NCBI GenBank assembly: GCA_944332715.1
Contig: CALVKN010000001.1
Location: 13,415-77,414, forward strand
Source of the DNA: an uncultured Bacilli bacterium
GTDB taxonomy: Bacteria; Bacillota_I; Bacilli_A; RF39; UBA660
Reading direction: 5' to 3'
DNA length: 64,000 nt
Below are positions 14,748-15,016 of the stretch, in pieces. Numbering within the stretch: position 1 is the first letter of the stretch; every line of letters begins with the position of its first letter. The translations under genes were made by a program, and so were the position numbers. The notes under the pieces are model-generated. The model ran no database searches, was not told where the DNA came from, and saw only the letters and a list, made by a program, of their open reading frames with translations.

Positions 14748-14884
14748 CGATTTTCCTTGCCTTTATCATATTTTAACTCTAGAATAGATAACCGTTACCC
14801 ATAGTGGGAGCGTCTACTTTGCTTTGCTGGATTCCAGCTATCAGGGGGAACCTTGGGAGTCAGGTTTGAAAGGAAGGTGAAGTC

Positions 14885-14965
14885 ATGAACAATAATGAAC
14901 TTTATTTAGTAATGATAGTAATTATACTCGGTTTAATAGCTGATATAAAAGACAAAAGACGCTAA
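14885..14965 (+). CDS. 26-aa hydrophobic peptide with a basic C-terminus (putative type I toxin)
   Basis: SD GGAAGGTGA lies 4 nt before the ATG. MNNNELYLVMIVIILGLIADIKDKRR. Conserved in copies B and C. Confidence 0.55.
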   Translation: MNNNELYLVMIVIILGLIADIKDKRR

Positions 14966-15016
14966 AATAGCGTCTACAACTAGTAGATGCTACCCACCAC
15001 TATGGGTAACACTTAC
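14948..15016 (-). ncRNA. predicted ~65-70-nt antisense sRNA (putative antitoxin); ends are approximate
   Basis: Driven by the conserved extended -10 promoter. It ends at hairpin AGACGCT-ATTTT-AGCGTCT plus TTTTGTCTTTT (minus-strand reading). It is fully complementary to the last codons and the 3' region of the peptide mRNA. Confidence 0.5.

Follow-up and report, generated by a model that had tools for sequence, protein, structure and literature searches.

A candidate type I toxin-antitoxin-like module of uncultured gut Bacilli with a predicted long-distance closing helix and a 3′-overlapping antisense RNA

The bsrG/SR4 locus of Bacillus subtilis is the closest described counterpart, in design, of the element reported here: a candidate toxin-antitoxin module (module A) on a 64,000-nucleotide (nt) stretch of DNA from an uncultured Bacilli bacterium (GenBank assembly GCA_944332715.1, contig CALVKN010000001.1, positions 13,415 to 77,414; the whole stretch is called the window below). 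In the bsrG messenger RNA (mRNA), helix P1 pairs nt 1–35 with nt 232–262 (PMC3834814). The antitoxin small RNA (sRNA) SR4, which is 3′-overlapping, leaves bsrG nt 1–33 single-stranded and extends the helix that holds the Shine-Dalgarno sequence (SD) from 4 to 8 base pairs (bp) (PMC3834814); the bsrG/SR4 duplex is cut by RNase III (PMC3834814; PMC6562991). In the par system (Fst/RNA I-RNA II) of the Enterococcus faecalis plasmid pAD1, a DNA direct repeat provides a second sRNA stretch complementary to the mRNA 5′ region (PMC7472228). Long-distance 5′-3′ pairing also closes the full-length toxin mRNA in hok/Sok and in Helicobacter pylori aapA1/IsoA1, (PMC9841398, PMC5416894), and in the T1TAdb database such 5′-3′ interactions serve as structural descriptors.

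We propose that module A belongs to a sequence family not described before, of type I toxin-antitoxin-like modules present in several chromosomal copies, in which, as in bsrG/SR4, a helix closing the mRNA would be opened by a 3′-overlapping sRNA. We give this reading a probability of about 0.6. It draws on the sequence anatomy of the module, its conservation, covariation between copies and thermodynamic predictions. Because the architecture has a clear experimental precedent in bsrG/SR4, the family would be new and the mechanism would not. The first-pass annotation, made from the letters of the window, had called the combination of a fold-back mRNA with a 3′-overlapping antitoxin unusual; this label was wrong, since bsrG/SR4 has both (PMC3834814). 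The elements of module A are as follows.

14730–14744, + strand: upstream box ATGTCGAAnTTTGTC, continuing to ...ACGATTTTTCTTG; present in every module copy (22770–22784 in copy B, on the − strand; 36310–36324 in copy C)
14757–14762 and 14780–14785, + strand: predicted sense promoter, −35 TTGCCT, 17-nt spacer, −10 TAGAAT; TAGAAT and the spacing are kept in all modules
14794–14807, + strand: 5′ outer arm GTTACCCATAGTGG, perfect complement of 14997–15010
14809–14818, + strand: 5′ inner arm W, AGCGTCTACT, pairing with Z (14982–14991) or alternatively with X (14957–14963)
14816–14825, + strand: anti-SD segment ACTTTGCTTT (ACUUUGCUUU), partner of the SD region in folds of the nascent and of the sRNA-bound RNA
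14871–14880, + strand: SD region AGGAAGGTGA, a strong SD in which GTGA is invariant in ten A/B/C-type modules
14885–14965, + strand: open reading frame (ORF) for a 26-amino-acid (aa) peptide, MNNNELYLVMIVIILGLIADIKDKRR, with a hydrophobic core and a basic C-terminus
14957–14975: X-Y hairpin AGACGCT-aaaat-AGCGTCT (14957–14963 with 14969–14975) around the stop codon at 14963–14965; read on the minus strand, the stem of the sRNA terminator
14982–14991, + strand: 3′ inner arm Z, AGTAGATGCT, pairing with W or with Y
14997–15010, + strand: 3′ outer arm CCACTATGGGTAAC, partner of 14794–14807 in a 14-bp outer helix
14947–15016, − strand: predicted antisense sRNA of about 65–70 nt, covering the last 6 codons and the 3′ untranslated region (UTR) of the sense RNA
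15023–15051, − strand: predicted sRNA promoter, −35 TTGAAT, 17-nt spacer, extended −10 TGgTATATT, right after the thiI stop codon and identical across copies

From the position of the sense promoter, the peptide mRNA would start at about 14791–14794 and carry a 5′ UTR of approximately 90 nt. The inner helix W-Z comprises 10 bp including one G·U pair (14812/14988), and an internal loop of 1/5 nt, in which G14808 faces ACCCA (14992–14996), separates it from the outer helix. A direct repeat, AGCGTCTAC, occurs at 14809–14817 and again at 14969–14977; in addition to the X-Y hairpin, a second alternative hairpin (Y-Z) can form, TAGCGTCTAC-aacta-GTAGATGCTA. One lone perfect inverted repeat of 14 nt is only mildly unusual: of 300 dinucleotide-shuffled versions of the 601-nt region, 2 contain one. 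The outer-arm 14-mer, however, has 7 matches in the window against 0.19 expected, and the same pair of arms is found three times in the window and also in other genomes. A match with 2 mismatches at 30513–30526 was discarded as a chance match within a coding region.

Folding recovered the panhandle that had been proposed between 14794–14817 and 14983–15010. The 217-nt sense RNA has a predicted energy of −78.9 kcal/mol compared to a mean of −47.7 ± 4.5 for shuffled sequences (z = −6.9). For module A, the 14-bp outer and 10-bp inner helices are both present in the centroid and consensus folds; the predicted minimum free energy (MFE) structure keeps the outer helix and pairs W with X. The first-pass annotation had also pointed out that AGCGTCTAC is repeated and that two alternative hairpins follow from it. 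This holds: the mutually exclusive pairings are near iso-energetic, with −77.8 kcal/mol for the outer helix combined with W-Z and X-Y and −78.9 kcal/mol for the outer helix combined with W-X and Y-Z.

Covariation in the sense RNA was followed in 11 modules (10 distinct rows) of four types, a set made of ten A/B/C-type modules to which the divergent type D was added. On the ten modules, the RNAalifold consensus kept all 24 panhandle pairs. In the set of 11, 95.9% of cells are paired, compared to 24–51% when the 3′ partner is slid by 1–3 columns, and six panhandle pairs carry changes on both sides, a number reached in none of 500 shuffles. Thirteen of the 14 outer pairs never vary. In the inner helix, double changes separate type A from type D (U-A to C-G, A-U to G-C and C-G to U-A), and in the outer helix of type D a U-to-A change in the 3′ arm is offset by a U inserted in the 5′ arm. 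The energies of the arm duplexes follow the same partition, with about −37 kcal/mol for cognate arms and about −25 kcal/mol for mixed A/D arms.

The changes also indicate the strand on which the pairing matters. All one-sided changes (L018C has G for A at column 8, L021 and type D have U for C at column 19, and the C-type modules have G for A at column 24) yield G·U in the sense RNA, where the antisense strand would have A·C, and the sense MFE lies 11–25 kcal/mol below the antisense MFE in 11 of 11 modules. In type C, Y follows X (AGGCGCT/AGCGCCT) and W is still complementary to Z; that Y tracks X while W tracks Z argues for a W-Z helix maintained in its own right. On these comparative data, the panhandle is a conserved RNA feature whose pairing is favoured in the sense RNA.

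On the opposite strand, a conserved promoter and a covarying terminator predict an antisense RNA gene facing the peptide ORF. The extended −10 ends at 15023, and the sRNA may start 4–6 nt upstream of 15010. The sole terminator-like site in 14400–15200 is on the minus strand, where the stop-codon hairpin (14975–14957) is followed by a T-run; it can therefore act as an intrinsic terminator, giving an sRNA of about 65–70 nt. Compensatory variants of its stem (three or four) were found, among them GGCGC/GCGCC, GACAC/GTGTC and GGCAC/GTGCC. In the predicted fold of the sRNA, a single-stranded linker of 13 nt joins a 9-bp 5′ hairpin to the terminator with its T-run. As had been suggested, such an sRNA would compete for the 3′ arm. 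Folding with and without the sRNA favours the sRNA-mRNA duplex over the separate folds by −55.6 kcal/mol (cofold free-energy difference, ddG), and the 5′ arm is predicted to be displaced.

The expectation that the sense RNA has no obvious terminator was confirmed: the sense strand has none in 14400–15200, none after the 3′ arm in any of A, B and C, and none that is conserved between the arms. In copy C, ACCTTTTAGT comes after the stop-codon hairpin (36546–36564) on the sense strand, and the site looks weakly terminator-like on both strands, a property absent from A, B and the C-type relatives L018C and L021. Within 14400–15200, no terminator belonging to thiI precedes that of the sRNA; the thiI mRNA therefore probably ends at the latter, with the antitoxin sequence in its 3′ UTR.

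Two further copies of the module lie in the window.

22502–22720, − strand: module B, peptide MNDNEFYLVMIVITLGLIADIKEKRR at 22547–22627 (−)
22461–22489 and 22538–22554, + strand: promoter and terminator of the module B sRNA
36374–36600, + strand: module C, peptide MNDKIFCQVIIILVLVLFSNRGQAKRR at 36471–36554
36641–36613 and 36564–36546, − strand: promoter and terminator of the module C sRNA

Modules A, B and C share a common plan. The sense promoter (TTGnnT, 17 nt, TAGAAT) ends 7–9 nt before the 5′ arm and is followed by a 5′ UTR of approximately 90 nt, a strong SD, an ORF of 26–27 aa, the stop-codon hairpin and the 3′ arm, into which the opposite-strand promoter (TTGAAT, 17 nt, TGgTATATT) is directed. 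Arms and sRNA promoters are identical in the three copies, with diverged UTRs and ORFs, and the arm energies suggest that the three sRNAs could cross-react. The box ATGTCGAAnTTTGTC is directly upstream of the sense −35 and runs into it. This holds for modules of other genomes too, and the box may serve as a regulator site or an UP-like element. A Cheo/LexA-box identity was dropped, the box being, as judged by eye, not palindromic.

Outside the window, exact matches to both arms among species-representative genomes were obtained in 3 metagenome-assembled genomes (two uncultured Bacilli and Candidatus Onthocola stercoravium), and most sequencing runs containing the sequence are metagenomes of chicken gut. 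Six more module loci (L017–L022), together with one chance match (L023), came from a metagenome scan. The relatives come from uncultured Bacilli in chicken and human gut assemblies. In viral contigs, a 16-mer scan gave 13 chance matches and no module. One locus, L018, carries tandem modules of different types, D (19–234) and C (349–575). The type D module, with peptide MSNNIFYQLVIILLFGIIYQNIEKRHRK, is a divergent fourth type whose arms have co-diverged and which is predicted from the arm energies to be orthogonal to types A and C. Contig fragments (runs X25–X27, X69, X72 and X74; on window positions 14996–15035 and L018:199–223) point to at least four more module types. Their Y-Z hairpins differ yet stay internally complementary, and one has a changed outer 3′ arm (…TATCCACAAT…). 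Judging from these fragments, the family is far more diverse in chicken-gut metagenomes than the fetched loci show.

An ORF of 26–28 aa, encoding a small, hydrophobic, membrane-type peptide with its own SD, is retained in the four module types. None of seven peptide or ORF variants was present, by exact look-up, in a collection of 15 billion proteins. Searches of plasmid and phage records with the 331-nt module (blastn) and with the peptide (tblastn) gave no match, very short hydrophobic queries having low power in such searches. Rfam gave only chance matches in the region, both with gathering thresholds across the whole window and with E<=10 for 14450–15100.

In the scheme below, we infer where the transcripts end, that the peptide is toxic, which ribonucleases take part and in which direction translation is affected. 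The + strand would give an mRNA of about 217 nt or longer for the 26-aa hydrophobic, C-terminally basic peptide, and the minus strand the sRNA of about 65–70 nt overlapping the last codons and the 3′ UTR. In the free mRNA, the first 25 nt or so would pair approximately 190 nt downstream in a P1-like closing helix of 14 + 10 bp. This helix would shield both mRNA ends, from RNase J1-type attack at the 5′ end and from 3′ exonucleases. The proposed protection of the 5′ end is modelled on the 5′ upstream helix of par RNA I (PMC7472228); because there is no intrinsic sense terminator, the closing helix probably also sets the mature 3′ end and blocks 3′ exonucleases. The ribosome-binding site would be largely closed from transcription onward by the local anti-SD helix. 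Pairing of the two RNAs could nucleate between the terminator loop and linker of the sRNA and the X-Y loop and unpaired Y-Z spacer of the mRNA. The sRNA would then zip along Z and the 3′ outer arm and expel the 5′ arm, and the freed 5′ segment would let the anti-SD helix extend. The resulting 66-bp duplex would be a substrate of RNase III, so that peptide synthesis would be blocked and the mRNA would decay.

Control of the SD in this scheme is local. In predicted folds, nascent RNAs of 100–150 nt already pair the anti-SD (14816–14825) with the SD region, and this helix carries compensatory changes between types (alignment columns 30–36 with 82–88). Because the anti-SD helix forms in nascent RNA and covaries, the SD would be controlled locally and not by the panhandle. 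With the sRNA bound to the 3′ 66 nt, the folds predict release of the 5′ arm into a small hairpin and a longer anti-SD helix. The predicted accessibility of the SD then decreases from 0.33 to 0.19 in A, from 0.25 to 0.19 in B, from 0.47 to 0.22 in C and from 0.22 to 0.14 in L001.

Several observations weigh against a toxin-antitoxin module of this design. The shift in SD accessibility is small; it is almost flat in L020 (0.43 to 0.40) and reversed in L017 (0.34 to 0.42), and the estimates cover A, B, C, L001, L020 and L017, with L018C and L021 excluded as their start codon was not located. The double-compensatory changes come essentially from type D, the other ten modules being close relatives, and covariation cannot tell W-Z/X-Y from W-X/Y-Z because W and Y are near-identical. 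The missing sense terminator leaves the 3′ end unfixed, and the sense RNA may extend into the convergent thiI. Matches in metatranscriptomes are unstranded Logan contigs only, with ends at assembly branch points; differences in depth between them are confounded as paralogues collapse. The raw-read runs are poly-A or single-cell libraries of the host and gave no usable 5′ or 3′ ends. Concerning the peptide, four of the five ORF substitutions between A and B alter an amino acid, so that purifying selection on it is not demonstrated. The four peptides gave no meaningful match in Pfam and NCBIfam and match no known toxin family, so that they are putative toxins.

This absence of homology to known toxins also fits a different function of the locus. 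It could encode a small membrane peptide alongside a cis-antisense RNA, or act as a terminator/3′-UTR element of thiI and other genes, with a read-through sense RNA regulating the convergent gene. In 9 of 9 modules (A, 15011–15061; B, 22456–22501; C, 36601–36672; loci L001–L021), the downstream ORF indeed converges on the peptide gene and runs in the direction of the sRNA, the gap between its stop codon and the 3′ arm is often only 25–50 nt, and thiI lacks a terminator before that of the sRNA. Furthermore, the copy at L017:4091–4305, syntenic with copy A, has an ORF frameshifted to 16 aa (MNDNEFYLVVISLYLA*) and has kept its arms, sRNA promoter and terminator. We nevertheless consider this function unlikely. 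The hallmarks of type I systems are conserved together, namely a hydrophobic/basic-tailed peptide of <30 aa, a sequestered SD, a convergent short sRNA and paralogues. Decaying toxin genes typically show loss of the ORF in a copy, and loss in this single copy is of that kind; the L017 copy resembles a toxin in decay whose antitoxin has been kept.

A lock of the hok type, to which the first-pass annotation had likened the fold-back by reference to the fbi element, was weighed on the same data. In such a lock, the panhandle mRNA would be an inert, stable reservoir, slow 3′ trimming would activate translation and the sRNA would target the activated or refolding form. Comparable 5′-3′ pairing controls hok and H. 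pylori aapA1 (PMC5416894, PMC9841398); 3′ processing is plausible given that no sense terminator was found, and the Y-Z hairpin could be the refolded state. The analogy is not supported, and we judge a lock of this type improbable. The arms neither contain nor touch the SD, which the local, covarying anti-SD closes in 100–150-nt nascent RNAs, and the panhandle form shows no reduction in predicted SD accessibility; if anything, its value is slightly higher than that of the sRNA-bound form. Moreover, the sRNA target is the 3′ arm, so a trimmed ‘active’ mRNA would lose most of the antitoxin target, the opposite of hok/Sok and aapA1/IsoA1.

A stronger version of the bsrG/SR4-like reading can be drawn from the likeness between the sRNA and the 5′ end of the mRNA. 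The toxin mRNA, having no terminator, would have its ends defined and protected by the panhandle alone; an sRNA with the same first 14 nt or so would replace the mRNA 5′ end on the 3′ arm, within a strand-asymmetric network of W, X, Y and Z, and would also be delivered as the 3′ UTR of a host gene. If true, the G·U/A·C asymmetry would give a clean terminator on the antisense strand and, on the sense strand, a switch between two states (W-Z/X-Y and W-X/Y-Z), and the sRNA as 3′ UTR of thiI and other genes would couple toxin control to host-gene transcription. This elaboration seems doubtful to us. The mimicry had been noted at the outset; such likeness in sequence is trivial for an antisense RNA starting at or near the outer end of an inverted repeat.

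Finally, a DNA-level inverted repeat with an incidental RNA panhandle, made of terminal repeats of a mobile cassette or of a duplicated operator or initial-transcribed element at convergent promoters, would suit the multi-copy occurrence in different intergenic sites, the start of each arm at or beside a predicted transcription start and the near-invariance of the 14-nt arms (13 of 14 outer pairs), as for a protein site, but is highly improbable: conservation between copies runs about 65 nt past the 5′ arm and about 45 nt past the 3′ arm, which places the arms inside the conserved unit rather than at its ends (a miniature inverted-repeat transposable element was dropped on this ground), no target-site duplication was seen, the arm differences are solely those tolerated in RNA (sense G·U), and the inner helix covaries though its DNA arms differ, which is unexpected for a shared protein site.

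Module A is located in an AT-rich genome between ackA (13241–14449, minus strand) and thiI (15059–16249, minus strand). Between ackA and the module, a 65-aa Tyr/Asn-rich ORF (MYNTNYYYKGYDVTNN...) occupies 14467–14664 (−), and this stretch is conserved in L017. A tRNA gene (22858–22931, +; Rfam) is found about 140 nt from module B on the side of its sense promoter. Elsewhere in the window, Rfam identified a glmS ribozyme (61074–61220, +) and a tRNA gene (42724–42796, −).

If the toxin-antitoxin reading is confirmed, the modules would constitute an unannotated type I family of uncultured gut Bacilli, not represented in Pfam, NCBIfam, Rfam or the searched protein collection. They would also provide an independent, sequence-unrelated case of the bsrG/SR4 design, which would suggest its convergent or very ancient use in Bacillota. 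No new mechanistic category is opened. Module types with matched arms (about −37 kcal/mol for cognate and about −25 kcal/mol for non-cognate arms) would be natural orthogonal variants for the study of the relation between the helix and mRNA stability.

How does the module compare with the described systems? With hok/Sok and aapA1/IsoA1, it shares a predicted long-distance 5′-3′ interaction closing the mRNA. In those systems, the fold-back mRNA is inert until 3′ trimming and the antisense RNA acts on the 5′ region, whereas in the present module the predicted antisense RNA lies across the 3′ arm itself and control of the SD would be local. Unlike in hok/Sok, the peptides have no Hok/Gef match in Pfam, and no overlapping leader ORF (mok-like) was found in the ORF list of module A.

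With par/Fst and the Fst/Ldr-like loci, the module has in common predicted convergent promoters and a predicted short antitoxin RNA. As in par, a 5′ stem-loop, here predicted, would sequester the SD, and a direct repeat gives the sRNA a second complementarity to the mRNA 5′ region. In contrast to DRa/DRb of par, however, the repeat AGCGTCTAC lies at mRNA nt 16–24, approximately 70 nt upstream of the start codon and not in the initiation region. There is also no shared bidirectional terminator, the U-tract being present only on the sRNA strand in A and B (weakly on both in C). The PXXXG(C) motif and conserved Trp of Fst (PMC7472228) are absent, no peptide contains Pro or Trp, and there is no match to Fst_toxin in Pfam.

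The bsrG/SR4 system differs in its components. No similarity of the peptide or of the RNAs was detectable (Rfam, Pfam, NCBIfam; tblastn against phage and plasmid records). The predicted sRNA is about 66 nt long, compared to about 180 nt for SR4, and has its start where the closing helix has its outer end; no terminator stem-loop follows this helix (A, B, C); the peptide has 26–28 aa, compared to 38 for BsrG; and the four-segment repeat W, X, Y, Z permits two iso-energetic inner conformers. The predicted layout is the same. In both, a toxin mRNA and an antitoxin RNA, here both putative, are convergent and overlap in their 3′ parts, and a long helix, here predicted, joins the extreme 5′ end of the mRNA to a segment downstream of the ORF. 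Binding of the antitoxin on the side of the 3′ arm frees the 5′ arm, here according to thermodynamic predictions. A local helix holds the SD and lengthens in the complex; here this tightening is predicted, modest and limited to A, B, C and L001. Although it is not a demonstrable member of the bsrG/SR4 family, the module is built like bsrG/SR4.

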